Assembly (NCBI GenBank): GCA_965207735.1
Contig: OZ242296.1
Span: 1,984,001 to 2,048,000, forward strand
Source: Candidatus Versatilivorator sp.
Lineage (GTDB): Bacteria > Acidobacteriota > Terriglobia > Versatilivoradales > Versatilivoraceae
Reading direction: 5' to 3'
Length of the DNA stretch: 64,000 bases
The position numbers were made by a program, and so were the translations under genes. The notes under the pieces are model-generated. The model did no database searches. It worked only from the letters and a program-made list of their open reading frames with translations, and had not been told where the DNA came from. Every line of letters begins with the position of its first letter. Position 1 is the stretch's first letter. Of the stretch, positions 45,708 through 64,000 are shown in pieces.

Positions 45708-46784
45708 ATGCTAACCGAATCCGCCGGGCAGCACCCTGTCCCCGACGTGCTTGACCCGTTTCCCGAGGGTTGGTACTTCGTTGCCAGCCGTGAATCCATC
45801 CTCAAGGAAAAACTGATTGAGAAGACCTGGATGGGCGAAGATATCGTGGCTTGGTGCGACGGTGTGGGCGGCGTCTGCGTGGCTGAGGCGGTCTGTCCCC
45901 ACCTGGGCGCCAACCTGGGTCCGGCCGGCGGGGGCCGGGTGCGCAATTCCCGACTCGTCTGTCCGTTTCACGGCTTCGAGTTCGCCGTCAGCGGCCAATG
46001 CGTTGCCACCCCCTTTTCCCCGGCGCCCAGGTCCACCGGTCTGAGGGTGTTCGAGACGCGGGAAATGCTCGGCATGGTCTTCGCCTGGTGGGGGAAAAAC
46101 GACCGGCCGCCGCAATGGCGCCTTCCCGAGGATCCGCCGTCCGGACCCGACTGGAGCGAAATGGGATACAGGACGCTCAGATTTCCCGGTCATCCCCAGG
46201 AAACCACCGAAAATGCGGTGGACCTGGCGCACCTGCGTTACGTGCACGGCTACGGCAACGTGTCCCGGGTGGCGCCGCTATCGGTGGAAGGCGTCTGCCT
46301 CACGAGCTCCATCGACTTCAAACGCACCAGGACTATCGCCGGGATCGGCGACCTTGTGTTCGACGTCTCCGCCGCCACCTACGTCTTCGGACTGGGTTAC
46401 TCGCAAGTGGACATTCGCGAACGTACGATTGGCATGGATTCGCGTCTGTGGGTGCTGGCAACGCCCGTCGACGGCACACACATCGACCTCGTGCTGGCCG
46501 GGCAGGTGCGGGAGATACGTAAACCGAAGCGGCCCATCGTCGGTCTGAGGTTCGTTCCCACGAGCTTGCGCGCCGGGATCATGAACAGAATGATGATGGC
46601 CATTCAAAAGCAGGATGTTCTGCAGGATGTGGTGATCTGGGGAAGAAAAAGGTACCGGGCCCGCCCGCGCCTGTGCCGGTCCGACGGCGAGATCGGACGG
46701 TATCGACGCTACTGCCAACAGTTCTACCCGGATCATCGGGATGGCGGTCGGGATCGGTGTGAACCTCCGTCCGTAGAGTCCTGA
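45708..46784 (+). CDS. Rieske [2Fe-2S] oxygenase, cholesterol 7-desaturase (Neverland)/KshA-like
   Basis: FPEGWY, CPHLGA...CPFHG Rieske ligands, ENAVDLAHLRYVH mononuclear Fe site, and C-terminal QDVVIW..K.Y...DG.I..YRRY..QFY typical of the steroid-acting subgroup. Confidence 0.85.
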   Translation: MLTESAGQHPVPDVLDPFPEGWYFVASRESILKEKLIEKTWMGEDIVAWCDGVGGVCVAEAVCPHLGANLGPAGGGRVRNSRLVCPFHGFEFAVSGQCVATPFSPAPRSTGLRVFETREMLGMVFAWWGKNDRPPQWRLPEDPPSGPDWSEMGYRTLRFPGHPQETTENAVDLAHLRYVHGYGNVSRVAPLSVEGVCLTSSIDFKRTRTIAGIGDLVFDVSAATYVFGLGYSQVDIRERTIGMDSRLWVLATPVDGTHIDLVLAGQVREIRKPKRPIVGLRFVPTSLRAGIMNRMMMAIQKQDVLQDVVIWGRKRYRARPRLCRSDGEIGRYRRYCQQFYPDHRDGGRDRCEPPSVES

Positions 46785-46827
46785 CAACGTTGTCCGAATC
46801 CTATCCGTGTCCACTGAGTAGATCGGC

Positions 46828-48045
46828 ATGAGAAAACTAATCAGCTTCTTTATTGCGACTGTCATCCTTGTGGGCTCCGGCGCCCTGGCCTATTACCTGG
46901 TGTCTATGGCGCCTGAACCGGAGCGCCGCGAGCCACCGCCCCAAATCCCCTTTGCACAGACTGCCAGGGTTGTGGCCGGCTCAGGAGCCATCCCCGTATA
47001 CGGCGCCGGGACGGTGCGGCCCAGCGCCGAAATCGACATCGCTCCGCTGGTCGGCGGAAACGTGGTCTGGATGAATCCGGCGTTCCAGAGCGGAGGACGG
47101 ATCCGGGCGGGCCAGGCGATATTCCGAATCGAGAAGGAAGACTACCTGCATCGGGTGCGCCAGGTGGAAGCCGAACTCGAAGCTCGCCGGGTCGCCCTCT
47201 TCGTGGCCCGGGAAGAAGCGGCATTCGCCCGCAGCGAATTCGAGCAGTACTCCCGCCAGCAGCTCGAGGCAGGTGAGTCAGCGGGAGAGCCGGGCCCCCT
47301 TGCTCTTAAGGAACCCCAGATGAAGGCGGCCCAAGCGGCCATAGACCGTGTGGAATCTCAACTGGCCGATGCCAGGCTGGCCCTGTCCCGCACCGAAGTG
47401 CGAGCGCCCTTTGACGGCTACGTGCGCCACGAGTCGTTGGATGTGGGACAGTTTGTAACCACCGGCCAAGCCGTTGGGCGGCTGTTTGCCGCCGATGCGG
47501 TCGAGGTGGTGGTTCCCCTGTCCGACGCCAACGCCGCCTTGATCCCGGGGCTCTGGAAACTGCGGGCGGGGGACTCCAGAAGACGCGTGGCTGCTCGCGT
47601 CATCGCCAGATACGGTGACAAGAGTTACGTTTGGAAGGGTTACGTCGACCGGGCTGAAGTATCCATCGACGAGCAGTCGCGAACCATTGACGCAATCCTG
47701 CGCGTGCCCAACCCCTTTTCCGCGGGAGCCCCAGCCGAGGAAACCGATGAGCCCGGCGCCTCACCCCCGCTCCTGGTGGGCAAGTTTGTGGAGGTGGCGA
47801 TCCAGGGTCTTGCTCCTGAGAGCTACTTGCGGGTGCCGCGGGCGGCGCTGCACCCCGGCAACGAGGTTTGGACGGTGAGCGAAGACAAGAGGGTTAATGT
47901 AGTCCCGGTGCGCGTCCTTCAGCGCGTCAACGATGAGGCGTATATCATCGGGGCTCTCGAAGACGGGCAGTTGGCCATCATTGGGGGCATTCAGCATGTC
48001 ACCGAAGGCATGCTGGTACAGACCGGGGACGGCTCGGCTCCGTGA
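46828..48045 (+). CDS. RND efflux periplasmic adaptor (MFP)
   Basis: N-terminal TM helix, GTVRP, coiled hairpin, TEVRAPFDG, LLVGKFVEV, VPRAAL. Confidence 0.9.
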   Translation: MRKLISFFIATVILVGSGALAYYLVSMAPEPERREPPPQIPFAQTARVVAGSGAIPVYGAGTVRPSAEIDIAPLVGGNVVWMNPAFQSGGRIRAGQAIFRIEKEDYLHRVRQVEAELEARRVALFVAREEAAFARSEFEQYSRQQLEAGESAGEPGPLALKEPQMKAAQAAIDRVESQLADARLALSRTEVRAPFDGYVRHESLDVGQFVTTGQAVGRLFAADAVEVVVPLSDANAALIPGLWKLRAGDSRRRVAARVIARYGDKSYVWKGYVDRAEVSIDEQSRTIDAILRVPNPFSAGAPAEETDEPGASPPLLVGKFVEVAIQGLAPESYLRVPRAALHPGNEVWTVSEDKRVNVVPVRVLQRVNDEAYIIGALEDGQLAIIGGIQHVTEGMLVQTGDGSAP

Positions 48046-48062
48046 GTGAAATTAAAAAGCAG

Positions 48063-48236: not shown

Positions 48237-50264
48237 ATGGGCACGGCTGTGCAATCCCCGATACGCCTCGCCGAAGAGTTGATCCTCCTGATGCTCAATG
48301 AGCAGAGCGGCTATCTGGAGATGGTACCCGGCTGGAGTTTCTCCTGCGTCATGGCCGGCTCCGTCATCGCCGATCTTGCGCTGGAGGATCGAATCGACAG
48401 TGATTTGAACAGGTTGTATCTTGTGGATCCCACTCCAATCGGAGACAAGCTGCTCGACCCCACGCTCAAGGAGATCGCCGAGTCCCGGGAATCGTCGGAC
48501 ACGCAATTCTGGATCGAACGGACCGCGGGCCGTTCCGAAGAAATCGTCACGGCCACACTCGATCGCCTGGTGGAGAGGAAGATCCTCGACTACGAGATGG
48601 GTGGATTCTGGGGCCTCTCGCGCTCCGTTTCACGCTCAGGAACCTATCCGACCTCTGACTTCCACGTCCGCCAGGAAGCTAAATCAAGAGTCCTGAGCGT
48701 CATCTTGAACGACGACATCCCTGACCCGAGCGATGCCATTCTCATTGCCTTGATGCATACCTGCGGCGGTTTCAAGCTGGTGCTTTCACCGGAAGACTAC
48801 GAGGAGAAGCTCGAGCGGATCGAGACGATCGCCAAGCTGGATCTGGTAGGGCGGTCGGTTGCCAGCGCAGTGAGGGACAGCACCGCCCAACCGAAGACCC
48901 GTCGTGTTATCCAGGCCAAACCCATTCCGAAGCTCCGATTCGTCGACATCCTGCGACAGCGTGACCTTCGCTCGGGAAATATCCCGAAGGCGATGAACGG
49001 CATCTTCCGGGAGTATGGGCCGGTCGTCCGGCTTCCCTTCAAGATCCGCAAGTCACCCGTAGTCGCCTTGATGGGGCCGGACACCAATCAGTGGGTCAAC
49101 AAGTACGGGCGGTTCTACCTCCGCTCGAAGGACTACATCCAGGACCTGGAGCGTGCGTTCGGAGCCACCCGCACCATGCCGGGCATGGATGGCGCCGAGC
49201 ACTACAGGATGCGCAAGTCGCTTCAGGGCGCTTATTCCCGCGCCGCGCTGGGGCGGAATCTGCCGGAGTTGATCCACCAGTGCAGACATTCGCTGCGGCG
49301 ATGGAATGAAGGCGAGGTTTTGCGAGCAGGCCCGACCTTCAAGAACCACGTCAGCAGCCAAATCTCTCATCTGGTGATCGGAGTGGATTGCAGCCACTAC
49401 GTCGATGAACTGCTCGAATACGAACATCGCGCGCTGGTGACGCAAGTTCAGGGCGCATTGCCCAAGTTCATGCTGCGCACGCCCAAGATGAAGCGCTATG
49501 GAAAGCGCGTCCGTGAACTCCAGGAGGCGATCATCGCATCCCACACCCCGGCGCAGCGGAGGGGGAAGCCGCCGGATATTGCCGACGCAATCCTCGAACT
49601 CCACAAGAACGACCCCCAGTTCCTGCCGGAAACGGACATTACCTTCCCGTTTGTAGCGGCAATGGTCGCCAGCATCTATCTCGGCAGCGGGCTCGCCTTC
49701 GCAGTCTATTCCATGATTCGACACCCGGACCTGCACGCGAAGATCCAACGAGAAGCCGAGTTGCTCTTCGGCAACGGGCGTGAACCGCAGGCGGAGGACT
49801 TTAGTCACGACAGCATCGACGTCACCGTCCGCCTCTGCATGGAGTCCGCGCGCTTGTACCCGGTGATTCCCTGGCAGTTGAGAACGGTCATGAACGAATG
49901 TATTGTCAGTGGCTATGAAATTCCGGCCAAGACGATGCTATTGATTTGCCAGACGGCAACTCATTACGCCGAGGACCTCTTCAAGGACCCGCTCGCGTTC
50001 GACATAGACCGCTATCTGCCGGATCGGGGAGAACATGCGACCCCGGGCGCCTATGCCCCCTATGGCCTGGGCACGCACACTTGCCTTGGAAGTCGGTGGG
50101 TGGAACTGCAGATGGCCGTCAACATCCTGCTGATCGCGTACCACTTGAAGCTGGAGGTGACGCCCGCAGACTACAAACTTGGATTCAATCCCTTCCCGAC
50201 ATCTTCCCCCAACAAGAAGTTGAAGTTCCGCGTCGCTCAAATCAGGAACCCGATCCTGTCCTGA
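48237..50264 (+). CDS. GPP34 (GOLPH3/Vps74)-cytochrome P450 fusion, copy 1
   Basis: N-terminal ~210 aa IRLAEELILLML...AGSVIADLALEDRI...LDRLVERKIL (GPP34 pattern). C-terminal P450 with ESAR (ExxR), IDRY and heme motif PYGLGTHTCLG. Confidence 0.88.
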   Translation: MGTAVQSPIRLAEELILLMLNEQSGYLEMVPGWSFSCVMAGSVIADLALEDRIDSDLNRLYLVDPTPIGDKLLDPTLKEIAESRESSDTQFWIERTAGRSEEIVTATLDRLVERKILDYEMGGFWGLSRSVSRSGTYPTSDFHVRQEAKSRVLSVILNDDIPDPSDAILIALMHTCGGFKLVLSPEDYEEKLERIETIAKLDLVGRSVASAVRDSTAQPKTRRVIQAKPIPKLRFVDILRQRDLRSGNIPKAMNGIFREYGPVVRLPFKIRKSPVVALMGPDTNQWVNKYGRFYLRSKDYIQDLERAFGATRTMPGMDGAEHYRMRKSLQGAYSRAALGRNLPELIHQCRHSLRRWNEGEVLRAGPTFKNHVSSQISHLVIGVDCSHYVDELLEYEHRALVTQVQGALPKFMLRTPKMKRYGKRVRELQEAIIASHTPAQRRGKPPDIADAILELHKNDPQFLPETDITFPFVAAMVASIYLGSGLAFAVYSMIRHPDLHAKIQREAELLFGNGREPQAEDFSHDSIDVTVRLCMESARLYPVIPWQLRTVMNECIVSGYEIPAKTMLLICQTATHYAEDLFKDPLAFDIDRYLPDRGEHATPGAYAPYGLGTHTCLGSRWVELQMAVNILLIAYHLKLEVTPADYKLGFNPFPTSSPNKKLKFRVAQIRNPILS

Positions 50265-50664: not shown

Positions 50665-53600
50665 ATGAATTTCAACAGAAACAACCACGCCGAACCCCGT
50701 GGACCGATTGCCTATATGGCGGGCAACAGCGTCGCGTCCAATCTGCTGATGTTCGGCATCATCGCTGCGGGCCTCGTGTCGCTGACCGGCCTCGAGCAAG
50801 AAGGGTGGCCCACGGTGCCCTTCTATCAGTTCGAAATCTCCGTGGCGCTCCCCGGGGCAACGCCCGAAGAGGTGGAGGAGGCCATCGTCGTCAAGATCGA
50901 GGATGAGGTCAGGGGACTGGCGGACGTGAAGGCGGTCAGGTCCGTAGCGGCCCCGGGAATCGCGTCCGTCAGGGTCGAATTCAAATCGGGCACGGACATG
51001 GGCGCGAAGAGGGATGAAGTCGAGTCGGCGGTCGGGCGCATTCAGACGTTCCCGGGCGGAGCCGAGCGGCCCCAAATCCGGGAAATGACCAACGCCCAGA
51101 GCATGATGCGCCTCATCCTCTACGGCGACGTACCCGAGCGGTCGCTGAAGGAGCTCGCCAACCGTATCGAGGACGATCTCGCTTCGCTCCCGAACGTGTC
51201 CCAGGTCGAGACCAGCGCTGTGCGCGACTACGAGATCTCGATCGAAGTACCAATGCAGCGGCTGCGGGCCCTTCGGCTTACTCTTACCGATGTCGCCAAT
51301 GCGATTCGCCGCGGTTCCCTGGACCTGTCCGCGGGCAGCATCAATACCGAGCAGTCCCAGGTGCGAATTCGGACCCTCGGTCAGAGCTACCATCAGCAGG
51401 ATTTCGAGGACATCGTCATCCTCGGCCGCGACGACGGCACAGTGGTGCGCCTGGGTGATATTGCCGAGGTGCGCGACGGATTCCAGGACTCAGATTTGAT
51501 CGTGCGGCACCAGGGTCATCCAGCCGTGTTCGTTGAGGTTTCGCGAGCCGACGGCGAGAGGGTGATGGATGTGTCGCGCGCCGTTCGGGACCATGTTGCG
51601 AACGAGATCACGCCCTCGCTCCCCGACGGCGTGGGCATCAGTATCTGGAGCGACGACTCTTCGGTCTTCGTGGAGCGCGGCCTCATTCTCCTCAAGAACG
51701 GAGGCATGGGGCTGTTGCTGGTCTTGCTCGCGCTGGGCCTTTTCCTCGAACTCCGGCTGGCGTTTTGGGTCGCCGTCGGTCTCGGCGTTTCCGCGATCGG
51801 CGCCCTGGCCGCCATGCTGATTTTCGACATCCCGCTCCATGAGATATCGCTCTTCGCGTTCGTGCTCGCGATCGGAATCGTCGTAGACGACGCGATCGTC
51901 GTGTCCGAGCACATTCACCAGGAGCGAATGCGCGGAACGGCGGGGGTTGTAGCGGCGATCCGGGGTGCGCGACGAATCAAGGTGCCGCTGATTTTCGCAG
52001 TGCTGACAACGGTCGTGGCGTTCCTTCCGCTGGCCTTCATACCCGCGGGCTTCGGAGAGGTCTGGAAGGCCCTGCCGATCGTCGTCATTGCCATGCTGCT
52101 GATTTCGCTGGCCGAATCGCTGCTGGTACTGCCCAACCATCTATCCCATCATCTGCACGGCCCGGATTGGGTGCCCGGTACGGGCACTGAACGAATCGTC
52201 TCCCGGATCCAGAATCGTGTCGATTCCTGGTTCAACAGTTTTGTACAGGGGCCCCTGGATCGTGGGATACAGTTCGCGACGGACTGGCCTGAGGTGACGG
52301 TCGCGGGGGCCGTCGCGCTGCTCATCCTGAGCATTTCCCTCATCCCGGCCGGCATCGTCCCCACCACCTTCGCAACAGCGGTCGAAGGCGACTTCGCAAT
52401 CGCCACCATCGAGATGCCGGACGGAACGACCGCGCAGCAGACGTACGCAGTGGCGCAACAGTTGGAGTCAGCCGGTCGCCGGGCCATGGAGCGGCTTTCC
52501 GAAGGCCGGCCCGCGGATGCGCCTCCTCTACTGTCCGGCGTTACGGTCGTCGTCGGTCAGCGTTCGCGGATCGAAACCGGGGGCCTCAACCCCTCGCCCA
52601 CCCTGAACCCGGAAGCCAATGTCGCCACCATCGAGTTCAAGCTCCTGAGCGCGCAGCAGCGGCGCATCACTTCGGGGGAAGTCGTGCAGGCATGGCGCGA
52701 GGAGGTGGGTGTCATGCCTCATGTGCGCGCGGTCACCTTCATCAGCGAGATCTACACACTGGGCAACCCGGTCGAGGCCGCGCTGTCCCACCCGGATCCG
52801 GAACGCCTGGTCGAGATCGCATCTTCCGCAGTCGCTGGCCTTGGCGGAGTCGGAGGCGTCTTCGACATACGCTCTGATCACACTCGCGGCATCCCGGAAG
52901 TTCAGATGGGATTGCGTCCCGAAGCGCGCACCCTCGGCCTCACGCTCGATGATCTTGCCCGGCAGACGAGAGCCGCCTTCTTTGGCGTAGAGGCCGTGCG
53001 GGTGCAGCGAGGACGTGAAGAAGTTCGGGTTTATGTGCGGCTACCCGAGGAGCAGCGTAATGCGATCACCGACGTCGAGAGATACTGGCTCCGTACGCCA
53101 ACCGGTGCCGACGTGCCGTTAAGCCGCGTGGCTTCGCTGAGTTCGGGCACATCGCCGCCGGCCATCCGGCGCCAAGACGGCCAGCGCATTGTCACGGTCA
53201 CCGCTGACGTGGATGCCAGTGTGATTTCCGCCGCGACCGCCAATGACATTCTGGAGAACACTATCTTCGCGGAACTCATCGACGAAAACCCGGAACTCAC
53301 CTACACCTTCGGAGGTGAACAGCAGCAGCAGCTCGACTCTCTAGGCGGTCTATATCGCGGATTCGTAATCGCGTTGCTCATGATCTTCGCGCTGCTGGCC
53401 ATTCCGCTGCGCTCCTATACCAAACCGTTCATCGTCATGGCCATCATCCCGTTTGGGTTCATCGGCGTGATCCTGGGCCACTGGGTCCTGGGGGTGGCCG
53501 TGAGCGCGGAATCCTTCGTCGGGATATTCGGCCTCGCCGGCGTGGTGGTGAACGATTCCCTGGTGATGATCGATTTCACCGATCAGAAGCTCAGGGAAGA

Positions 53601-53844
53601 CATTCCGGTGCGAACCGCGATCATCGAGGGTGCGAAGGGACGATTTCGCCCGGTCATGCTTACTTCCCTGACCACCTTCCTCGGCTTCACCCCCCTTATT
53701 CTCGAAGACGCGATTCAGGCGCAGTTCTTTGTTCCCTTTGCCGCCTCGATCGGCTGCGGCATCCTCTTCACCACGACAATGGTCATGTTTCTGGTGCCCG
53801 CGCTTTCCTCGATCCATCAGCGCCTGACCTCGGCGCGGGGCTGA
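50665..53844 (+). CDS. RND efflux permease (AcrB-like)
   Basis: PGATPEEVEE, IGIVVDDAIVV, GVVVNDSLVM, RFRPVMLTSLTT. Two periplasmic loops, 1059 aa. Confidence 0.93.
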   Translation: MNFNRNNHAEPRGPIAYMAGNSVASNLLMFGIIAAGLVSLTGLEQEGWPTVPFYQFEISVALPGATPEEVEEAIVVKIEDEVRGLADVKAVRSVAAPGIASVRVEFKSGTDMGAKRDEVESAVGRIQTFPGGAERPQIREMTNAQSMMRLILYGDVPERSLKELANRIEDDLASLPNVSQVETSAVRDYEISIEVPMQRLRALRLTLTDVANAIRRGSLDLSAGSINTEQSQVRIRTLGQSYHQQDFEDIVILGRDDGTVVRLGDIAEVRDGFQDSDLIVRHQGHPAVFVEVSRADGERVMDVSRAVRDHVANEITPSLPDGVGISIWSDDSSVFVERGLILLKNGGMGLLLVLLALGLFLELRLAFWVAVGLGVSAIGALAAMLIFDIPLHEISLFAFVLAIGIVVDDAIVVSEHIHQERMRGTAGVVAAIRGARRIKVPLIFAVLTTVVAFLPLAFIPAGFGEVWKALPIVVIAMLLISLAESLLVLPNHLSHHLHGPDWVPGTGTERIVSRIQNRVDSWFNSFVQGPLDRGIQFATDWPEVTVAGAVALLILSISLIPAGIVPTTFATAVEGDFAIATIEMPDGTTAQQTYAVAQQLESAGRRAMERLSEGRPADAPPLLSGVTVVVGQRSRIETGGLNPSPTLNPEANVATIEFKLLSAQQRRITSGEVVQAWREEVGVMPHVRAVTFISEIYTLGNPVEAALSHPDPERLVEIASSAVAGLGGVGGVFDIRSDHTRGIPEVQMGLRPEARTLGLTLDDLARQTRAAFFGVEAVRVQRGREEVRVYVRLPEEQRNAITDVERYWLRTPTGADVPLSRVASLSSGTSPPAIRRQDGQRIVTVTADVDASVISAATANDILENTIFAELIDENPELTYTFGGEQQQQLDSLGGLYRGFVIALLMIFALLAIPLRSYTKPFIVMAIIPFGFIGVILGHWVLGVAVSAESFVGIFGLAGVVVNDSLVMIDFTDQKLREDIPVRTAIIEGAKGRFRPVMLTSLTTFLGFTPLILEDAIQAQFFVPFAASIGCGILFTTTMVMFLVPALSSIHQRLTSARG

Positions 53845-54063: not shown

Positions 54064-55116
54064 TTACCCCCGAAGAGGCCGGCGCACCAAGAAACAGTAG
54101 AGCGACGTGAAGATTCCGGCCCGGCCCCCGGCGACATAAGCGCTTGCGGTCCGATCCAGCAGGCTGACGACCTCCGTCGAGCCCTTCGGGAACACACCGA
54201 GATATTCGGCCATCCTGGATCCCCACTTCCAAGCCTTGCGGCCCATCGGAGTCCGGCGGAAAGCACTGCCGAGCAGTCCGCCCCGGGTTTCCATGGGCTG
54301 ATACCACGGCGTGATCGGACCATGCTGGGCGCGGGCGAGGTCCAACCCCTCCATGACTTCGAATCCCGCGGTTTCGAGCGCCCTGTTTACCTCACGAAAC
54401 GTTGCGATTTCCTTGAGCGCGATGCCGTGCATGAGTTCCCGCTTGATGGCGCGATGCCGATCGTTACCGGGATCGAACAGGTCCGTCATGCACATTTCCT
54501 GACCCCAGAAGAGGGCTCCCGGTTTCAGGACGCGGTAGATTTCGGCGAACGCAGCCGCCTTGTCGGCCGCGTGGCAGGTCGATTCGATCGCGTAGCCACT
54601 GTCGAACGTTTTGTCCGCGATGCCTTTCATTTCCATGAAGCTGCACACCAGGCAGTCGGTCATGTCATCGAGCCCCGCAGCCGCGTTCAGCCGCTTGGCT
54701 TTGTTGCACTGGACTTCACTTATGTTGACCCCGACGACCCTGACACCGGCCTCGCGGGCGACCCGGCGCATTGGACCACCGATCCCGCAGCCGATGTCGA
54801 CTACCGTCATGCCCGGCCGCAGTTCGAGCTTGGAGATCATGAGTTGCTGGTGCCGGAGCTTGGAGTCCTCCAAGCTCTCGCCAGGCGACAGCGGCGCGAA
54901 GTGAAGGGATTCTCCCCAACCCCAGACCATGAAGTCGCTACAAAGGTCGTAGTATTCCCTGACGGTCGGCGTGTGGTCGTAGCCCGCTTCGGAATCCTGG
55001 TGGGACACCCTTCTGGTCCATCCGTCGAAGTCCTGCACGCGGCGGACGACGTTCGACCCGCCGAATGCGGCCTTCAGCGCATTGGATAATTCGTGGAATT
55101 GCCTCGCCGACCTCAT
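54064..55116 (-). CDS. sterol C24-methyltransferase (SMT/Erg6)-like SAM methyltransferase
   Basis: SMT regions: YYD...WGWGESLHFAP (I), DIGCGIGGPMR (II), AIESTCHA (III), EIYRVLKPG (IV). Confidence 0.88.
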   Translation of the reverse strand: MRSARQFHELSNALKAAFGGSNVVRRVQDFDGWTRRVSHQDSEAGYDHTPTVREYYDLCSDFMVWGWGESLHFAPLSPGESLEDSKLRHQQLMISKLELRPGMTVVDIGCGIGGPMRRVAREAGVRVVGVNISEVQCNKAKRLNAAAGLDDMTDCLVCSFMEMKGIADKTFDSGYAIESTCHAADKAAAFAEIYRVLKPGALFWGQEMCMTDLFDPGNDRHRAIKRELMHGIALKEIATFREVNRALETAGFEVMEGLDLARAQHGPITPWYQPMETRGGLLGSAFRRTPMGRKAWKWGSRMAEYLGVFPKGSTEVVSLLDRTASAYVAGGRAGIFTSLYCFLVRRPLRG

Positions 55117-55612: not shown

Positions 55613-57640
55613 ATGAGCTCGTCCGTGCAATCCCCAATACGCCTCGCCGAAGAGTTGGTCCTCCTGATGCTCAACGAGCAGAGCGGCTACCTGGAGATGG
55701 TGCCGGGCTGGAGTTTCTCCTGCGTCATGGCCGGCGCCGTGATCGCCGATCTGGCGCTGGAGGATCGAATCGACAGTGATTTGAACAGGATGTATCTTAC
55801 CGATCCCACGCCGACCGGAGACTCCCTGCTCGACCCCACGCTCAAGGAGATCGCCGAGTCCCGGGAAACGTCGGACACTCAATTCTGGATCGAACGGACC
55901 GCGGGCCGTTCCGACGAAATCGTCACGACCACGCTGGATCGCCTGGTGGAGAGGAAAATCCTCGACTACGAGAGTGGTGGATTCTGGGGACTTTCGCGCT
56001 CGGTTTCCCGTTCGGGAACCTATCAGACTTCCGACCTCCAAATCCGCCAGGAAGCCAAGGCAAGAGTGCTGAGCGTCATCTTGAACGACGACATCCCTGA
56101 TCCGAGCGATGCCATTCTCATTGCCTTGATGCATACTTGCAGCGGTTTCAAGCTGGTGCTTTCGCCGGAAGACTACCAAGAGAAGCTCGAGCGAATCGAG
56201 ACGATTGCCAAGCTGGATCTGGTAGGGCGGTCGGTTGCCAGCGCAGTGAGGGACAGCACCGCCCAACCGAAGACCCGTCGTGTCATCCAAGCCAAACCCA
56301 TTCCGAAACTCCGATTCGTCGACATCCTGCGACAACGTGACCTTCGCTCGGGAAATATCCCGAAGGCGATGAACGGCATCTTCCGTGAGTACGGGCCGGT
56401 CGTCCAGCTTCCCTTCAAGATCCGCAAGTCGACCGTAGTCGCCTTGATGGGGCCGGACACCAATCAGTGGGTCAACAAGTACGGGCGGTTCTACCTGCGC
56501 TCGAAGGACTACATCCAGGATCTGGAACGTGCGTTCGGAGCCACCCGCACCATGCCGGGCATGGATGGCGCCGAGCACTACAGGATGCGCAAGTCGCTTC
56601 AGGGTGCTTATTCCCGTGCCGCGCTCGGGCGGAAGCTGCCGGAGTTGATCCACCAATGCAGACAATCGCTGTGCCGATGGAATGAAGGCGAGGTTTTGCG
56701 AGCAGGCCCGACCTTCAAGAAACACGTCAGCAGCCAAATCTCTCATCTGGTGATCGGAGTGGATTGCGGCCATTACGTCGACGAACTGCTTGAATACGAA
56801 CATCGCGCGCTGGTGACGCAAGTTCAGGGCGCATTGCCCAAGTTCATGCTGCGCACGCCCAAGATGAAGCGCTATGGAAAGCGTGTCCGTGAACTCCAGG
56901 AAGCGATAACCGCATCGCACACGCCGGCTCAGCGGAGGGGAAAGCCGCCGGATATTGCCGACGCAATCCTCGAACTTCACAAGAACGACCCGCAGTTCCT
57001 GCCGGAAACGGACATTACCTTCCCGTTTGTAGCATCAATGGTCGCCAGCATCTATCTCGGCAGCGGGCTCGCCTTCGCGGTCTATTCCATGATTCGACAC
57101 CCGGACCTGTACGCGAAGATCCAACGAGAAGCCGAGTTGCTCTTCGGAAACGGACGTGAACCGCAAGCGGAGGACTTTAGTCACGAGAGCATCGACGCGA
57201 CCGTCCGCCTCTGCATGGAGTCCGCGCGTCTGTACCCGGTGATTCCCTGGCAGTTGAGAACGGTCATGAACGAGTGTATTGTCAGTGGCTATGAAATTCC
57301 GGCCAAGACGATGCTATTGATTTGCCAGACGGCAACTCACTATGCGGAGGACCTGTTCAAGGACCCGCTGGACTTCGACATAGACCGTTATCTACCGGAT
57401 CGGGCGGAACATACGACCCCGGGCGCCTATGCCCCCTATGGCTTGGGAACGCACACTTGCCTTGGAAGTCGGTGGGTGGAACTGCAGATGGCCGTCAATA
57501 TCCTGCTCATCGCCTACCACTTGAAGCTGGACGTGATGCCCGCGGACTACAAACTTGGATTCAATCCCTTCCCGACATCTTCCCCCAACAAGAAGTTGAA
57601 GTTCCGCGTCACTCAAATCAGGAATCCGGTCCTGTCTTGA
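55613..57640 (+). CDS. GPP34 (GOLPH3/Vps74)-cytochrome P450 fusion, copy 2
   Basis: Same length (675 aa) and motifs as copy 1, with roughly 40 substitutions by manual comparison. Confidence 0.88.
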   Translation: MSSSVQSPIRLAEELVLLMLNEQSGYLEMVPGWSFSCVMAGAVIADLALEDRIDSDLNRMYLTDPTPTGDSLLDPTLKEIAESRETSDTQFWIERTAGRSDEIVTTTLDRLVERKILDYESGGFWGLSRSVSRSGTYQTSDLQIRQEAKARVLSVILNDDIPDPSDAILIALMHTCSGFKLVLSPEDYQEKLERIETIAKLDLVGRSVASAVRDSTAQPKTRRVIQAKPIPKLRFVDILRQRDLRSGNIPKAMNGIFREYGPVVQLPFKIRKSTVVALMGPDTNQWVNKYGRFYLRSKDYIQDLERAFGATRTMPGMDGAEHYRMRKSLQGAYSRAALGRKLPELIHQCRQSLCRWNEGEVLRAGPTFKKHVSSQISHLVIGVDCGHYVDELLEYEHRALVTQVQGALPKFMLRTPKMKRYGKRVRELQEAITASHTPAQRRGKPPDIADAILELHKNDPQFLPETDITFPFVASMVASIYLGSGLAFAVYSMIRHPDLYAKIQREAELLFGNGREPQAEDFSHESIDATVRLCMESARLYPVIPWQLRTVMNECIVSGYEIPAKTMLLICQTATHYAEDLFKDPLDFDIDRYLPDRAEHTTPGAYAPYGLGTHTCLGSRWVELQMAVNILLIAYHLKLDVMPADYKLGFNPFPTSSPNKKLKFRVTQIRNPVLS

Positions 57641-57944: not shown

Positions 57945-58931
57945 ATGACGATGACGGACCATAGAGGCGAGGGCTGTCTGAGAGTTGTCCTGGCCCAGCC
58001 CCGAGGCTTTTGCGCGGGCGTGGAGCGGGCGATAGAGATCGTTGAGGCGGCGCTGCGGAAATTCGGACCTCCGGTATATGTGCGGCATGAAATCGTCCAC
58101 AACCGGCGCGTCGTCGAGAATCTGAAGGCGAAGGGTGTGCACTTCGTGGAGGAGATCGAACAGATTCCAAAAGGGATGGTAGCCGTCTTTAGCGCTCACG
58201 GGGTGGCAGCGCAGGTCGAGCAGGACGCCGCGACACGGGGGCTGCGCGCGATCGATGCTACCTGTCCGCTTGTGTCCAAGGTGCACGCGGAAGGACGGCG
58301 GTACGCCCGCGGCGGCTACGACATCGTGCTGATCGGCCACGAGAACCACCCGGAAGTTGAAGGCACGGTCGGGCAAATTCCAGGCAGGGTCATCGTGATC
58401 GGAGACGTCGAGGGGGTCGAGGCTCTGACGGTGCGCGATCCGGAGAAGGTGGCTTACATTACGCAGACGACCCTTTCCGTTGACGATACGCGTGAGGTAA
58501 TCGCGGCACTTCGACGGCGGTTTCCGAAGATCGTAGGACCGGACGTCAAGGATATCTGTTACGCGACACAGAACCGCCAGGCGGCTGTCCGAATGGCGGC
58601 CTCGATCGTGGATGTGGTTCTGGTGGTGGGCGCCCGCAACAGCTCGAACTCGAACCGGCTGTGCGAGGTGGCTGAGGACGCTGGCGTGCCTGGCTTCCTG
58701 GTCGAAGACGCGTCGAAGCTCGATCCGGCCTGGCTGGAGGGCAAGAAGAGCGTCTGCATTACAGCCGGTGCGTCCGCTCCGGAGGAACTGATCTGGGAGG
58801 TCATCGGGAAGCTCCGGGAATACGCAACGCTGGACGTTTCAACCATGGACGGGATTGTCGAGCACGTGCACTTCGGCCTGCCCGATGGGCTCGATGCCGC
58901 CGGCCCGGGGAGCGAAAGCCGAGCGACCTGA
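57945..58931 (+). CDS. ispH: 4-hydroxy-3-methylbut-2-enyl diphosphate reductase
   Basis: [64 protein letters not shown]. Confidence 0.97.
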
Positions 58932-58950
58932 AGAGCGATCCGGGATCAAC

Positions 58951-59079
58951 ATGGCCGCAAGTCACTCGAGCTCTTCGGCGTCGAGCGACATCACATTCCG
59001 GACGGAGATGCTGGACGGGTTGCAGTTCATCCTCTTCAAGCTCTTTACCTTCGGTTTGCCCAAAACGTCGGCGGCATGA
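58951..59079 (+). CDS. possible 42-aa peptide translationally coupled to squalene synthase
   Basis: [42 protein letters not shown] fills the ispH-SQS gap, and its TGA overlaps the next ATG (ATGA). Confidence 0.35.
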
Positions 59080-60152
59080 GCGCGACTTCTTCAAATGGAC
59101 CGACCGACAGCGATCTTTCCTGCCAGACGCGTTTGCTGCAAGACGTTTCACGCACCTTTGCTCTCACCATTCCGCAGCTCCCCCATCGCTTGCGATGGCC
59201 CGTAACCAACGCTTATCTCCTGTGTCGGATTGCCGACACCATCGAGGACGAGCCTGCGCTCTCGCTGGCGCAGAAGCAGGCGTTCCTGGACCGGTTGGTT
59301 CAAATGATTGCCGGTCGTGAAGATGCGACCCCATTCGCTCGTGACCTCGGCTCACTGCTGTCTTCATCCACCACCGAGCAGGAGCGGGACCTTGTTGCCA
59401 ACTGCAGCCGCGTAATCCGTATCACTGCAAGTCTCCGTTCCAGCCAGCGCGGAGCCATCGTGCGTTGCTTGCGAATCATGTCTCGCGGCATGATGGAGTT
59501 CCAGCGAAATCCAAACCCGGTCGGGCTGAAGGACTGTTCCTGTCTGGATCGCTATTGCTATTACGTTGCGGGAGTTGTGGGGGAGATGCTCACCGAGTTG
59601 TTCTGCGACTACTCCGCCGAAGTCAACAAGCAGCGAAAGGGTCTGCTGGAATTGTCGGTGGCCTACGCCCAGGGACTGCAGATGACCAACATCCTCAAGG
59701 ACCTGTGGGACGACCGGCGGCGCGGTGTGTGCTGGCTTCCCAGAGACGTGTTCCGGGCATCAGGTTTCGAGTTGGATCAACTGTCCCCCGGCGAGGCCGA
59801 TCCAAGGTTCCTCGATGGGTTCTTCGAGCTGGTGGCGATTACCGTGCGCTTGCTCCGGGATGGATTGCGGTACGTTCTGCTCATCCCTGCCCATGAAGCC
59901 GGCCTCCGCCGCTATCTATTATGGAGCCTGGGCTTGTCCGTGCTCACGTTGCGGCGCCTCTACAGGACGCCCTCATTCATGAGCGGCCGGAATATAAGAC
60001 TGTCGCGGTTGAGCGTCGCAGCGCTCATTGTCTTGAGCAGCGTCCTGGCTCGGTCGGATTCCGCCTTGAAGTTCCTGTTCAAGGCGGTCACCCGCGGTCT
60101 GCCCGTCGCCGCGCAGCCTCAACCGGTCAACTCCTTGAATATTGAGCGCTAA
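59076..60152 (+). CDS. squalene/phytoene synthase family (farnesyl-diphosphate farnesyltransferase-like)
   Basis: [35 protein letters not shown] and [10 protein letters not shown], matching the single-enzyme squalene-synthase-type signature. Confidence 0.9.
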
Positions 60153-60273
60153 GGGGTGCGCTCGGAAAATTTCTCGCAGCTTCCTCAACTCTCGGTGTAT
60201 GACGAGGAGGGGATGAGCTGCAAGATGCCCGATCACGTCCATTCCGCCAAGTCAAGTTCCTGGTGAATGCCGT

Positions 60274-61524
60274 CTAGAAATTGTAGCTAAAGCTGAACGA
60301 GAAGAAGCTGTCGCGACGGATCTCATGGAGGATGTCGGATTCGTCCACGTTGGGAAAGGCGATCGATTCCACGCTGAGTGACCACCGGTCCGTGATTCTC
60401 CGATTGAATTCCAGGGTCACCACCTGCGAGGAACGGGTCGCATCGAACATGATACCGGCCAGCAACTCCGTTCCCTGGACATCATTGGGCGCCCACCGCG
60501 TGGCCACGAAGACATCGTTATCGAAGAAATTGGTCGCGTTGCCTCCCCGCCCGTCGTAGTTCCACTCGCCCAGAAGACTGACATCGTGGGCCGATCCCCA
60601 CACCGAATAGAAGGTGTATTCAAGCCCGGAGACCAGCGCTCCGTAGTCTTGCTTCGCCCTCCGAAGGTTGCGCGCCCCGGACCGCTGAATCGTTTCGAGC
60701 TTGAGCAGCCAGGCGCCGAGCGTGAGTTGCGCGTCCAGGCCCAATTGGCGGATCTGCTCGTAATAGGGCCGCAGAACAGGAGTGCCGCCCGAGTTCAGCT
60801 CCGGTTGAAAGAAGGGTTCGCGGCTGGTGCCGTCAAAGACGCTGGCGCCGATGTCCAGGGGACCGAAACTGTGGCTGTAACGGGCTGCGACGTCGAAGTG
60901 CCACTGCTTGGCGCGGCTCTCGTAGAGGGGGTTGTCCTTGTCGACGACCAGCGAGTAGCGCAGGCGGCCCCCGGACCCCGGAAAGGTGCGGGAACGGTGG
61001 TAGGGCAGGCCGAAAACCTCGACCACGCCCCAATCCGCGGACCAGGTGAGATGGGCCATGGGCTGGCCCAGCTTTTCCTCTTCGTCGGGGTGTTCGATCA
61101 GATCGGTCTGGTTGACGATATCGACCAGGTGGCGGGATTCCGCCACCCCCCAGAACACGCGGTCGACCCCGAGGCGCAACTCCCATTCACCGCGGTCGCT
61201 CTGGCCGAACCACAGCAGATAGGCCTCGCGCAGGTCGAAATGGGTTCGGTGAGGGTCGGCGCTGTCGTAGCGGAAAAAGGGGGTCAGCGTAAGGCTGCGG
61301 CCGCGGGCGTCTTCAAAATGGAATTCCGGTTCCGCCAACACGCCGCTGGCGTGCCAGCTCTGCTCCGGATAGGCTCCGGACTGGGGATGCCAGCGGCCCT
61401 CCAGGCTCAGGCGACCGGAAAAATCGTAGTCAATGGGCGGAGCCGAAGACCCTGGGGCCACCCCGAACAAGGCCACCCAAATCGAAACGAGAACGATGTG
61501 GACAAGGGCCGCGCCCCACCTCAT
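60274..61524 (-). CDS. putative outer-membrane beta-barrel protein
   Basis: Signal peptide, DLREAY...GVDRVFWG pattern, alternating beta strands, C-terminal FSFSYNF aromatic end. Translationally coupled to the LolA-like gene. Confidence 0.75.
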   Translation of the reverse strand: MRWGAALVHIVLVSIWVALFGVAPGSSAPPIDYDFSGRLSLEGRWHPQSGAYPEQSWHASGVLAEPEFHFEDARGRSLTLTPFFRYDSADPHRTHFDLREAYLLWFGQSDRGEWELRLGVDRVFWGVAESRHLVDIVNQTDLIEHPDEEEKLGQPMAHLTWSADWGVVEVFGLPYHRSRTFPGSGGRLRYSLVVDKDNPLYESRAKQWHFDVAARYSHSFGPLDIGASVFDGTSREPFFQPELNSGGTPVLRPYYEQIRQLGLDAQLTLGAWLLKLETIQRSGARNLRRAKQDYGALVSGLEYTFYSVWGSAHDVSLLGEWNYDGRGGNATNFFDNDVFVATRWAPNDVQGTELLAGIMFDATRSSQVVTLEFNRRITDRWSLSVESIAFPNVDESDILHEIRRDSFFSFSFSYNF

Positions 61525-62348
61525 CAACGGATTCGTCTCAGCCCTGTTCGTGTGAAGTCGTTCTCGTTCAGATTGTTCTGGAATTGAAAATCCGTCCACG
61601 TCAGAGTCGTGCTCTTGCCGGTGATGTGATTGACCATCGTCATCTTTCCGGCATACCAGTAGCGGTCGAGATACCGGCCGTAGTCTGCAACGGTAAGCGT
61701 CTTCAGGTGGGCGTTCTTGCGATCGTAGTAGTCTACCTTCCAGACGCGCAGCTCGTCCAGGTCCTGCCAGACCTCCTGACGGCTGTAGCCGGAGCGCCGG
61801 TCCGCCGGGATGCGTTCCGAGACGGTGCAGGTCAGATCCCCGCACGGCTCCTCCCGCAGGTAGCGATAGGTAAACTTCTCCACCTCCGGAGTGCCCATGT
61901 CTTCGTAGGCGAATTCACTGCCCATGAAGGAGCCGGACTGGTTCGACGAGCTGATTCGCTTGACCCGTCGCAGCGCCGGCAGATAGAGCCACTGTTCGTC
62001 ATCTTTCTCCCTGTGGGAGTGGATCAGCAACGCGGTCCCCTTCACGTCGCGCGGCTCGTCGAACACGAACAGGTTCTTGTCTCCCTCTCCCGGCACCTCC
62101 AGAACCTGCAAACGCAACTGGCGCCGACTCTCCTGCCCTCCCCGGTTGCGGAGCACCATGGTCTGACGCGCGCTAAAATCACCGAAGCCCTCGCCGCGCT
62201 CACGCGCATCCAGGGCGATCTTGAGGCCTCGGGCCTCCGGGTCCGACTCCTGGCTCAAAGCCGGAGTCCAAGCGGACAAAAACGCCCAAACAGCCAGACA
62301 ACTCATGCAATACAGGGATGGCCGACGGCGGAAAAAGGGATGATTCAT
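61524..62348 (-). CDS. outer-membrane lipoprotein-sorting (LolA-like) protein
   Basis: FDEPRDVKGTALL, DDEQWLYLPALRRVKRI, SGSFMGSEFAYED, DYYDRK..LKTL. Confidence 0.88.
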   Translation of the reverse strand: MNHPFFRRRPSLYCMSCLAVWAFLSAWTPALSQESDPEARGLKIALDARERGEGFGDFSARQTMVLRNRGGQESRRQLRLQVLEVPGEGDKNLFVFDEPRDVKGTALLIHSHREKDDEQWLYLPALRRVKRISSSNQSGSFMGSEFAYEDMGTPEVEKFTYRYLREEPCGDLTCTVSERIPADRRSGYSRQEVWQDLDELRVWKVDYYDRKNAHLKTLTVADYGRYLDRYWYAGKMTMVNHITGKSTTLTWTDFQFQNNLNENDFTRTGLRRIR

Positions 62349-64000
62349 GATTTGTCTCGATCGATGGCCATCAGCAGGGGCGGGAGCAGCAGAAAATCAG
62401 CCAGAAGCGCAAACCCCAGCGTGATGGCGACCAGCAGGCCCAGCACGGAGCTGACCTGAAATCCCGATGAAGCAAACACCAGAAAACTTGCCGACAAAAC
62501 CGCGGTCGTGGTCCACAACGCGTGGCCGACGGTGCGGAAAGTGGCGCGCACCGACTCGGAAGCGGAGGCTCCTCCGCGGCGGGCTTCGAGGTACTTGCTC
62601 ATGAAATGGATGGTATCGTCAACCACAATGCCGAATGCCACGGCGCAGACCACCGAGGCGGAAAGGCCCACCTGACCCACCAGGTAGCCCCACAGACCGA
62701 AGCTCATGGCCGCGGGAATGAAGTTGGGAAACAGGCTGACCAGACCGAACCGCAGGCTCTTGAACGTGCCGACAAGGATCAGCGAAATCATGGCCATGGC
62801 CACGATCGTACTGCGCAGCATGCTCTCGATGTTTCTCTGGGCCAAGTGAGCGAAGACCATTGTGACGCCCGATGCTTCTCCGGTCAATCCGGGCGCGTTG
62901 GCCCCGACCCACTCCCGGGCCCGCTCGTCCAGTTGGCGCAGACCCCGTGCGGACGCGCTGGCCACCACCGTCATTCGCGTGGCCGACTTGGCGACGTCGA
63001 TGCGGTCGTTCAAGTCATTGCCGAGCGGCAGCGACAGTTCGTACAGCAGCAGGTTCTGGGCTGCCAGCGCCGGATCCTCGGGAATTCGATAGAAGGCGGG
63101 GTCGTCGCCGTGCATGTTCTTGTTCAGGCGTTTCATGACGTCGGGAAACGACTGAACGAAGTTCACCTCCGGCTGATCCCGATACCATTCGGCAAAGGCG
63201 TCGGCCCTGCGCAGATAGGCCGGATCGGTGATACCGCCTTCGCGCCCGGAGTCCAGCGAGTACTCGAGCGTATCCAGCCCGGTCAGGTTTTCGATGACGA
63301 AGTCGGTATCGCTGCGGAAACTGTAACGCTGATCGAAATAACGCGTCCAATTGTCGCTCAGCTCGACGCGCGGAATGCCGGCGACCAGTACCACTGTCAC
63401 AATGGAGACCACCGCCAGCAGGACCTTGCGCCGTTCCACCACGAATGCGCCGAAGCGGTCGAAGAAGCCGGGACGGTCATCCGGAGTCGGATTCGGGCGC
63501 AACGGCAGAATCGAAAGCAAGGCCGGCAGAAACGTCATCGAGTAGACGAAAATGCACACTAGGCCAAAAGCCACCATATTGCCCAGAACATGGAAGGGGG
63601 GCGAATCCGAGGCATTCAGGCTCAGAAATCCGATCGCGGTTGTCAATGCGGCCAGGAAGACCGGGTAGGCATTGATCCGAAGCGATTTTCGGATCGCCTC
63701 CTCCCGGCTCTGCCCCTCCCGGAGGCCTGCCAGGGTGCTGGTGACGATGTGGACCGCGTGCGCGACGGCGATGGCCATGACGATGATCGGCACACCGGCG
63801 CTGGCGGGGCTGAATATCTGGCCGGTCCAACCGGCGAAACCCATGGTGCCGGCGATAACGAGTACGAACATGGTCACGATCGCCAGGGTTGCCAATATCG
63901 ACTTCAAGAGCAGGGCCGAGCTCACCACGATGATCAGGAACACGATCGGCACCAGCGTCTCCAGGTCGGCCGCGGTCGCCGCAGCCAGCACTCGATTCAT
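62345..64000 (-). CDS. MMPL/RND family lipid transporter (5' part beyond the window)
   Basis: LTTAIGFLSL, GIVVDDTIHF, multiple TM helices. The ORF runs to the window edge. Confidence 0.9.
   Translation of the reverse strand: MNRVLAAATAADLETLVPIVFLIIVVSSALLLKSILATLAIVTMFVLVIAGTMGFAGWTGQIFSPASAGVPIIVMAIAVAHAVHIVTSTLAGLREGQSREEAIRKSLRINAYPVFLAALTTAIGFLSLNASDSPPFHVLGNMVAFGLVCIFVYSMTFLPALLSILPLRPNPTPDDRPGFFDRFGAFVVERRKVLLAVVSIVTVVLVAGIPRVELSDNWTRYFDQRYSFRSDTDFVIENLTGLDTLEYSLDSGREGGITDPAYLRRADAFAEWYRDQPEVNFVQSFPDVMKRLNKNMHGDDPAFYRIPEDPALAAQNLLLYELSLPLGNDLNDRIDVAKSATRMTVVASASARGLRQLDERAREWVGANAPGLTGEASGVTMVFAHLAQRNIESMLRSTIVAMAMISLILVGTFKSLRFGLVSLFPNFIPAAMSFGLWGYLVGQVGLSASVVCAVAFGIVVDDTIHFMSKYLEARRGGASASESVRATFRTVGHALWTTTAVLSASFLVFASSGFQVSSVLGLLVAITLGFALLADFLLLPPLLMAIDRDKS

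Follow-up and report, generated by a model that had tools for sequence, protein, structure and literature searches.

How should one understand a bacterial locus in which enzymes of sterol type stand beside genes for squalene synthesis and for lipid transport? The question is raised by a 64,000-nucleotide stretch of DNA (hereafter the window; contig OZ242296.1 of assembly GCA_965207735.1, positions 1,984,001 to 2,048,000) from Candidatus Versatilivorator sp., a member of the Acidobacteriota whose genome (G000) is a single 5.26-Mb contig rated 100% complete. The genus is taken to be sponge-dwelling, although a literature search for its name returned nothing, and the organism probably lives in sponges. 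From position 45708 of the window runs a gene island that extends about 7 kb beyond position 64000, to 70930; window positions are converted to those of the contig (G000:C1) by adding 1,984,000. An earlier note, made from the letters of the window, had listed a steroid-type oxygenase, cytochrome P450 fusions, a sterol-methyltransferase-like enzyme, squalene genes and transporters here. All of these genes are present as open frames of the families it gave, according to the Pfam and NCBIfam profile matches by which we assigned gene families in the window. We propose that the island is composite: a first set of genes, module A, would remodel external sterols, and a second, module B, would make and export squalene, with no synthesis of the sterol ring by the organism itself. 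We regard this reading as evenly poised between right and wrong.

Module A comprises an oxygenase of the Rieske non-heme iron class and the steroid-ring (KshA/Neverland) type (45708..46784, plus strand; Pfam Rieske and KshA_C), an RND periplasmic adaptor of the MFP family (46828..48045, plus; TIGR01730 over the cut-off), a fusion of a GPP34 domain with a cytochrome P450 (copy 1, 48237..50264, plus; Pfam matches, and a P450 fold in the model), an AcrB-type RND permease (50665..53844, plus; Pfam) and, tail to tail with the latter, a divergent enzyme of the sterol methyltransferase (SMT) family (54064..55116, minus; Sterol_MT_C), whose likely start at 55116 gives a protein of 350 residues, the same length as its homologues. 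A survey of species genomes for relatives of this SMT gave 463 stretches, and our counts use the best 80 loci, which are 69-88% identical, with neighbours taken within 10 kb. Several of these loci are incomplete, so that the neighbour counts are lower bounds, and the set is heavy in Chloroflexota, with kin among the loci that are not independent of each other. The best 80 loci span eight phyla, the carriers being Acidobacteriota, Chloroflexota, Gemmatimonadota, Alpha- and Gammaproteobacteria, Latescibacterota, Rhodothermales, Acidimicrobiales and Dadabacteria. Near the SMT, a GPP34-P450 is found in 61/80 loci, the Rieske enzyme in 52/80, a flavoprotein in 30/80 and a transporter of the RND superfamily in 68/80 (27 AcrB, 38 MMPL of a Chloroflexota type and 3 further MMPL of the type of the window). 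By the first two of these counts the linkage is beyond chance, and a syntenic set of sterol-type tailoring and transport genes, as in the reading of the earlier note, is supported. Module A thus appears as a mobile set of SMT, GPP34-P450, KshA/Neverland-type Rieske and RND transporter, widely exchanged across phyla. The flavoprotein, a generic member of the amine-oxidase family, is present in G000 (74%), unlinked to the island (G000:C1:3415020-3416387).

The earlier note did not recognise the combination as a described cluster. Individual parts are already in print, namely symbiont SMTs, sterol clusters and GPP34-P450 fusions (PMC10070321, PMC9531527, PMC11706023; these and the other papers cited here were available in part, and what we say of them holds for those parts). 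The combination was not found in the literature searched, nor was any description of the module A cassette as a unit, with the limit that subscription papers and preprint supplements may bear on this point.

Where would module A obtain its substrate? We searched 77 of the genomes behind these loci, excluding two members of the genus and one repeat, for oxidosqualene cyclase (OSC) and squalene synthase (SQS). Many of these genomes are fragmented and come with no completeness figure, so that here too the counts are lower bounds. OSC was detected at 70% identity or more in 4/77 genomes and an SQS of the window type in 8/77, with no overlap; there were four further weak SQS matches near 32%. From these counts module A usually runs without home-made sterol and without this squalene supply, and its substrate is probably an external sterol. 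Direct links to genes of the sterol pathway are present in a few cases: 3/80 loci have a canonical SMT at most 10 kb away from the clade SMT, the GPP34-P450 and an MMPL adjoin an epoxidase and an OSC in one genome (G060), and one member of the genus of G000 (G010) has a full sterol cluster. The grouping of three enzymes that lean towards steroids (SMT, Rieske and P450) supports the sterol reading.

The SMT matches Sterol_MT_C with an E value of 2e-14, over the cut-off, and also has a methyltransferase domain; as the earlier note had held, it nests inside the SMT family, and not in a tocopherol or carotenoid clade. In a FastTree phylogeny of 122 sequences (untrimmed alignment, midpoint root), its clade has 16 members on a long branch with a support of 1.0, and it is nested among relatives of fungal Erg6 and rice SMT1, with deeper nodes at 0.75-0.85. 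No close solved Erg6-type structure was returned in a structure search. Our residue numbering is that of the yeast enzyme, anchored on a 2025 preprint (bioRxiv 10.64898/2025.12.19.695621), and it agrees with the canonical SMTs in the alignment. That preprint gives 25 residues common to all functional SMTs; the G000 enzyme retains 22/25 and fails at T78S, F89L and P359S, while the five known essential residues (H90, D125, G129, P133 and E195) are all intact. The enzyme carries Met81, Val82, Leu89 and Ile249, and among 199 relatives Met81 is found in 198, Leu89 in 199 and Ile249 in 198; outside the clade (106 sequences), Tyr81 is found in 93 and Phe89 in 94. T78 is retained in 28 of the 199 clade members. 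According to the same preprint, residues 81 and 249 flank the docked sterol side chain, and a G249I mutant retained one methylation and lost the further ones. Since residues that every functional C24-SMT retains are altered in the clade, the C24-alkylated product put forward in the earlier note is unsupported, and C24 alkylation by these enzymes appears doubtful. The fixed remodelling of the side-chain pocket, together with an intact S-adenosylmethionine site, suggests a different reaction rather than a decayed enzyme.

Compared with the symbiont C24 SMTs and the clusters for de novo sterol synthesis (PMC10070321, bioRxiv 10.64898/2025.12.19.695621, PMC9531527, PMC7074536), the island enzyme is alike in its SMT-family domains and its 22/25 residues, in the sponge-symbiont type of its hosts and in its horizontal spread across phyla. 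It differs by the fixed M81, L89 and I249, by an identity of only about 40% to the canonical symbiont enzymes, and by its partners, as the available parts of this literature do not link SMTs to GPP34-P450, KshA-type Rieske or RND pumps. In three genomes or clusters of the published symbiont SMT set there is an additional SMT, which is about 35% identical to Erg6. A search of six published supplements for the motif of the clade gave 0 matches, and thus no support for the idea that the sequence named "Nitrospira SMT 2 of 2" is an inactive member of the clade. The Gly249 SMTs of the 2025 preprint were considered as clade members and dropped, position 249 of the clade being Ile.

Which reaction could it be? 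Sterol 26-methyltransferases are described as undiscovered in PMC10070321, which names (epi)codisterol as a likely substrate; the SMT screens of that paper used desmosterol as well as 24-methylenecholesterol; the Delta-25 products (epi)codisterol and (epi)clerosterol are made by ordinary sponge and symbiont SMTs. We put forward, as a tentative idea that we consider unlikely, that the altered methyltransferase is the undiscovered sterol C-26 methyltransferase, which would convert Delta-25 (epi)codisterol and (epi)clerosterol to side chains of the aplysterol and 26-methylstigmastane type, with the Rieske enzyme and the threonine-less GPP34-P450 adding ring unsaturation or oxidation that is credited to the sponge.

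The Rieske enzyme finds its best PDB matches in KshA, with an E value of 1e-22, in keeping with the steroid-type label of the earlier note. The ligands of its Rieske cluster and of its mononuclear iron are invariant in 57/57 relatives, and its neighbours in a protein atlas include clusters automatically named cholesterol 7-desaturase. Cholesterol 7-desaturase is the activity of Neverland and DAF-36, with which, as with KshA, the island enzyme shares the Rieske plus KshA_C architecture and all metal ligands. A KshA-like and a Neverland-like activity are inseparable from these data. Among the island genes we saw no reductase partner, either KshB-like or for the P450. Two profiles were searched in the genome: TIGR03213, which we take to be of the HsaC type, gave 0 matches, and NF005882, which we take to be KstD, gave only short N-terminal ones. 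Steroid ring catabolism was thus rejected as a role, with no KstD or HsaC found in G000; together with the absence of a KshB-like reductase from the island, this argues against a 9,10-seco degradation pathway. A KshA cluster restricted to sponges has been reported (PMC5790920).

The P450 keeps the hallmarks of its family, with the heme Cys and the ExxR Glu and Arg each present in 62/62 relatives. It differs from a canonical P450 monooxygenase, which it resembles in the Cys motif and ExxR, by the loss of the acid-alcohol pair of the I-helix (Asp/Glu/His-Thr): the site of the His-Thr pair of CYP51 reads Tyr (62/62) and Leu (61/62). P450s that lack the I-helix threonine often run substrate-assisted or peroxide chemistry. 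The best sequence matches are bacterial CYP51 and CYP46A1, both weak (E 2e-19 to 1e-18). We considered the fusion as a CYP51 orthologue and rejected it, with about 24% identity to the P450 of the G010 sterol cluster and an E value of 2e-19 to solved bacterial CYP51. The model of the fusion has a mean pLDDT of 83.5 and a P450 fold. A second copy of the fusion (copy 2, 55613..57640, plus) is 94% identical to the first in protein and 93.5% in DNA, and the pair is therefore a recent duplication and not the two distinct steps that had been assumed at first.

The GPP34 domain opens a quite different explanation. It matches GOLPH3 and Vps74 (E 6e-6), and the Trp and Arg residues by which GOLPH3 binds phosphatidylinositol 4-phosphate (PI4P) are unmatched in what is a weak alignment. 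Fusions of this two-domain architecture, termed GPP34_L, are reported only from sponge symbionts in PMC11706023, where expression of the fusion in the metatranscriptome of a sponge is reported, and where a PI4P-based modulation of phagocytosis is proposed, with no substrate given. If the island fusion were such a host-directed PI4P binder, its neighbours would be incidental. This sits badly with the 61/80 loci in which the fusion lies near the SMT, and the proposal was made in a paper whose main text holds 0 occurrences each of "sterol" and of "methyltransferase". As opposed to GPP34_L as described, the island gene regularly lies near genes for a methyltransferase of sterol type and a Rieske enzyme, and its I-helix is non-canonical. 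We consider the host-directed role, as an explanation of the locus, very improbable.

Several points weigh against the reading of module A as a sterol-remodelling set. The similarity of the Rieske enzyme to KshA is moderate (84 bits), in a family with many non-steroid members. The fold matches of the P450 are generic, the top one being CYP184A1 with a bound fatty acid (oleate), and BM3, CYP51 and CYP46A1 score alike; the fold comparison of the model would thus not favour a sterol substrate. In the G000 SMT, the Pro359Ser change is private to this copy, Pro being kept in 198/199 relatives and in every SMT tested in bioRxiv 10.64898/2025.12.19.695621, so this copy may be impaired, and by the rule of 25 residues it may be non-functional on the substrates tested. 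The SMT is also dispensable for the island, being found in 4/13 other genus genomes as compared with 9 for the P450 and 12 for SQS. Finally, the island shows decay in G000, with deletions in a second AcrB gene (AcrB2) and a remnant of an MpaB/Lcp-family oxygenase gene.

Some of these observations would also fit a detoxification system, in which another hydrophobic compound (sponge terpenoids, steroidal toxins or unusual fatty acids) is methylated, oxidised and pumped out. A methyltransferase with oxygenases and a tripartite pump is, in general, a layout of this kind; the oleate-bound enzyme at the top of the P450 fold matches, the pocket of the SMT remodelled at 81, 89 and 249 and the generic nature of the partner flavoprotein all agree with it, and a wide horizontal spread fits a habitat-specific defence. 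Such a system does not account for the retention of both the Sterol_MT_C and the KshA_C domains, for the module genes that adjoin canonical SMTs or squalene epoxidase (SE) and OSC in some genomes, nor for the carriers among Chloroflexota and Actinomycetota, which pair these enzymes with MMPL lipid transporters and not with drug pumps. We consider this explanation rather unlikely.

Could the organism build the sterol by itself? The earlier note left open whether it makes a sterol or imports and remodels one. In the complete G000 genome, the squalene epoxidase domain PF08491 has 0 matches, and when the sterol cluster of a sister genome was used for a translated search, its epoxidase, its OSC and its SdmA-like protein gave no match. 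CYP51 was not found in G000 either, the P450 of the sister cluster being matched only at 23-29%, and SdmB gave only a generic match within the epimerase family (31%). With no epoxidase, OSC or CYP51 in a 100%-complete single contig, de novo synthesis is unlikely; of the two options of the earlier note, remodelling of an outside sterol is the likely one. This is a further difference from the symbiont sterol clusters of the CSG/msb type, whose SE-OSC, CYP51 and SdmAB were not found in G000. The sole full-length cyclase-like gene has a DxDD motif and scores 94-108 bits against cut-offs of 323-851. We tried it as a squalene or oxidosqualene cyclase and rejected it: it is far below the cut-offs for squalene-hopene cyclase (SHC) and OSC, has its own polyprenyl synthase and is present in 14/14 genus genomes. 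An SHC over the cut-off accompanied by hpnH and hpnG was looked for in G000 and not found. Among the 14 genus genomes, stronger cyclase matches occur only in G003 (E 1e-132) and in a gene fusion of G010. That G000 makes a C24-alkylated sterol de novo is thus largely refuted, and we give this idea hardly any weight: the IspH, polyprenyl synthases and SQS of G000 and the full sterol cluster of G010 speak for it, and against it stand the genes not found (SdmA included), the weak score of the cyclase-like gene and the 22/25 residues of the SMT. Taken together with the search for catabolic genes, these results make it probable that G000 can neither synthesise the sterol ring nor break it down. A gene of the ERG4/ERG24 sterol-reductase family, unlinked to the island and next to a multi-copy repeat, lies with a DUF1295 neighbour at G000:C1:1558453-1560563; it is 29% identical to the cluster-type reductase, and the pair fits the handling of an outside sterol.

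Two side observations concern these genes. The cyclase-like gene of G000 belongs to a region (G000:C1:816186-828550) with a radical SAM gene, a polyprenyl synthase and a gene of prenyltransferase fold, in which a multi-copy insertion interrupts the operon. In G010, a single frame of 1524 residues (L116:200-4774, minus, on contig C232) joins squalene epoxidase and oxidosqualene cyclase to a sterol methyltransferase at its C-terminus. The frame lies downstream of CYP51-like, ERG24, SdmA-like and SdmB-like genes; it could be a true triple fusion or the result of a lost stop codon, the form published being an SE-OSC fusion with a separate SMT.

Module B begins with IspH (57945..58931, plus; above the NCBIfam cut-off), a second genome copy, as another full IspH, 52% identical, is encoded elsewhere in G000. 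It is followed by squalene synthase 1 (SQS1; 59076..60152, plus; SQS_PSY), of the single-enzyme FDFT1 type, in which the flap, both Asp-rich motifs and the catalytic Tyr are intact. On the minus strand then come a probable outer-membrane barrel protein (60274..61524, probable start at 61524), a LolA-like periplasmic carrier that overlaps its neighbours (61524..62348; PF17131 LolA_like, E 1e-59) and an MMPL/HAE3-type RND transporter of 780 residues (62345..64000 in the window, with its start at 64687). The trio of MMPL, LolA-like and outer-membrane proteins of the earlier note is thus firm for its first two members, the third resting on a weak match to DUF1302 (E 0.0035, below the cut-off). The contig beyond the window, which the earlier note advised inspecting, contains the rest of the MMPL gene, a YjbQ-like gene (64858-65955, minus), AcrB2 with two internal deletions (66155-67990, minus), a TolC-like outer-membrane factor (68059-69525, minus) and squalene synthase 2 (SQS2; 69869-70930, minus), which is 61% identical to SQS1. 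Against TIGR01559, SQS1 and SQS2 score 94 and 109 bits, below the cut-off of 287, and this is still their best family, ahead of HpnC, HpnD and CrtB. They would thus be squalene synthases, as the earlier note had it, of the single-enzyme type and nearer to the eukaryotic enzymes than to HpnC, HpnD or CrtB.

In 80 metagenome loci with relatives of these synthases (about 50-55% identical), the setting is mostly an operon of hopanoid type, and 38 of the loci have a cyclase within the DNA covered; the one cyclase that was checked passes the SHC cut-off. Their common neighbours are hpnG, hpnA, hpnH, farnesyl diphosphate (FPP) synthase and IDI, with ispH in 2 loci besides a near-identical one (L158). 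The hopanoid setting of the relatives probably explains the ispH neighbour in the island, and module B probably descends from hopanoid operons, with no cyclase beside it here. Compared with these operons (SQS-SHC-hpnG-hpnA-hpnH-ispH, with HpnN), the island is alike in its SQS relatives and ispH neighbour; it differs by having no cyclase or hpn genes at the locus, by the duplication of SQS and by an MMPL far below the HpnN cut-off, the part inside the window (551 residues) scoring 87 against 752 (TIGR03480/NF052374). A PDB search with the MMPL returned MmpL4/5 and HpnN only. A further transport parallel is one of description, with BstABC of Methylococcus capsulatus (PMC10942540), in which a trio of inner-membrane, periplasmic and outer-membrane proteins is proposed for a triterpenoid lipid; in the island, the periplasmic part is LolA-like and the outer part DUF1302-like.

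Does module B then feed module A? Of the 80 loci, 1 has an SQS at a distance of 10 kb or less from the SMT; besides G000, linkage of the two is found in G004 and G007. SQS occurs with no SMT beside LolA and barrel genes (G070), beside MpaB (G083) and inside an MpaB-MMPL-LolA-barrel run (G011); conversely, an MMPL of the window type stands beside module A with no SQS in three loci (L038, L051 and L094). The two modules share transporter parts and yet are separable. As the SMT/P450/Rieske genes and those for squalene are mostly transmitted separately, the one dedicated pathway of the earlier note is unsupported.

A single pathway of another kind has to be weighed here, modelled on the alga Botryococcus, and leading to an open-chain, methylated and oxidised triterpenoid: IspH would supply FPP, the two synthases would split the steps before and after presqualene diphosphate, the SMT would methylate the chain, the P450, Rieske and MpaB enzymes would oxidise or cleave it and the MMPL would export the product. 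The triterpene methyltransferases (TMT) of Botryococcus belong to the SMT family. Both modules are physically linked in G000, G004 and G007, and no squalene-consuming cyclase over the cut-off is found in G000. SQS is present in 12/13 other genus genomes, as a tandem pair in 7, and pairs occur in five other Acidobacteriota genomes; the tree shows SQS1 and SQS2 to be an old duplication, common to other Acidobacteriota as well, with two motif changes fixed in 15/15 SQS2 sequences. A precedent is provided by SSL-1/SSL-3 and TMT-1/2/3 (PMC5978867, PMC7839719), a likeness by description of two diverged SQS paralogues and an SMT-family methyltransferase. The Botryococcus system is algal, however, and beyond the genus of G000 an SQS is rarely linked to an SMT: besides the 1/80 loci above, 69/77 genomes with the clade SMT have no detected SQS of the window type, and 9/13 other genus genomes have no detected clade SMT, although 12/13 hold SQS. 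We find this single open-chain pathway improbable.

A further explanation is that of a patchwork, in which an insertion hot spot beside a tRNA-Ala gene collects unrelated symbiont genes, the G000 copy being partly in decay. Giant genes for fn3/cadherin/SWM-repeat proteins flank the island on both sides (window 31391-44056, minus, and G000:C1:2056017-2065453), and a tRNA-Ala(GGC) gene lies near or downstream of it in G000 (G000:C1:2068133-2068209) and in three related genomes. Order and content vary in the genus. A block of 7.4 kb that is delimited by the two P450 copies, and that comprises AcrB, the SMT and one of these copies, is missing at the same site in the close relative G002, so that it was probably gained or lost by recombination at the P450 gene. 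AcrB2 is intact in G002 and G008 and internally deleted in G000; a whole MpaB/Lcp-family oxygenase gene stands between SQS1 and the barrel gene in G002, while G000 has a remnant of 36 codons (60156..60263, plus). The YjbQ-like gene, a probable passenger, points the same way. The patchwork would account for the joining of modules A and B, but not for their make-up, since module A recurs across eight phyla. Moreover, the G000 copies show few private changes at conserved columns (0 for the P450, 1 for the Rieske and 3 for the SMT, a number matched or exceeded by 21% of SMT relatives). It is therefore a decidedly unlikely explanation of the whole. Within the class, the SMT was found in 0/11 other family genomes, with one match of a distant type in 16 class genomes. 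The third-position G+C content (GC3) of the island genes is 0.70-0.83 against a median of 0.76 for long open frames, and being similar it shows no sign of recent foreign origin.

Further features were noted around the island and elsewhere in G000. A displaced piece of the island at G000:C1:3322316-3324557 consists of an ispH fragment (90%), a copy of SQS1 that is truncated (89%) and a complete oxygenase gene of the MpaB/Lcp family, 98% identical to the one inside the G002 island; outside the island, G000 has two genes of this family. The giant repeat-protein genes are members of a family with multiple copies throughout G000, which are about 82-95% alike in DNA. A phage-type integrase gene lies at 23627-24856 (minus), about 20 kb to the left of the island, and a group II intron-type reverse transcriptase element at 29196-31219 has at least 10 other copies in G000 that are over 99% identical.

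With these alternatives weighed, the composite island of external sterol remodelling and squalene export would work as follows. A sterol from the host or from neighbouring microbes would enter the membrane, and the SMT would methylate it at a non-standard site or act on a non-standard substrate, C26 of a Delta-25 sterol being the leading idea. The Rieske enzyme would desaturate or hydroxylate the ring, and the P450, deprived of its acid-threonine pair, might carry out a substrate-assisted oxidation, rearrangement or cleavage. The modified sterol would then leave the cell or be repositioned through MFP, AcrB and the outer-membrane factor, presumably in the outward direction. Separately, extra flux through IspH would feed squalene or a squalene-derived open-chain lipid, which may be exported as such or after oxidation by the route of MMPL, LolA-like carrier and barrel. 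Both modules would handle C27-C30 isoprenoid lipids and exchange parts of their transporters, which is probably why they share a site.

This matters beyond the locus. Steranes with 26-methyl or otherwise extended side chains are taken as evidence of the earliest animals, and it is stated to be open whether the sponge or its bacteria have the enzymes behind them (PMC12541326). The locus supplies a defined and widespread candidate enzyme for unusual sponge sterols, with a specific untried substrate. If the C-26 proposal were true, it would, in company with cyclase-free squalene exporters such as module B, make sponge sterols the joint work of the host and several symbionts. In addition, the locus allows the sponge-only GPP34-P450 fusion to be read as a lipid enzyme, and it presents a P450 family whose I-helix is unusual and, in a bacterium, two diverged squalene synthases that lack an adjacent cyclase; all four points, the SMT included, are testable by heterologous expression. 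The contribution of the G000 copy itself lies in the clues at the level of residues and in the joining of the two modules within a complete genome.

Some minor observations complete the picture. The YjbQ-like protein has 365 residues, with a weak similarity to YjbQ/UPF0047, apparently two YjbQ-like halves by eye and 4262 homologues; no Pfam match was over the cut-off. As a core part of the island it was rejected: it occurs in 42/301 phylum genomes, and an island gene was present in 0/12 of the neighbourhoods examined. A scan for promoters and terminators gave counts near chance (7 against 4.6 +/- 2.0, and 16 against 15.4 +/- 4.0, respectively). One RNA run labelled as a sponge metagenome, which consists of contigs only and may include DNA, contained 0.11 of the words searched, and its contigs spanned 30/30 bins, with 37/392 at least 99% alike.

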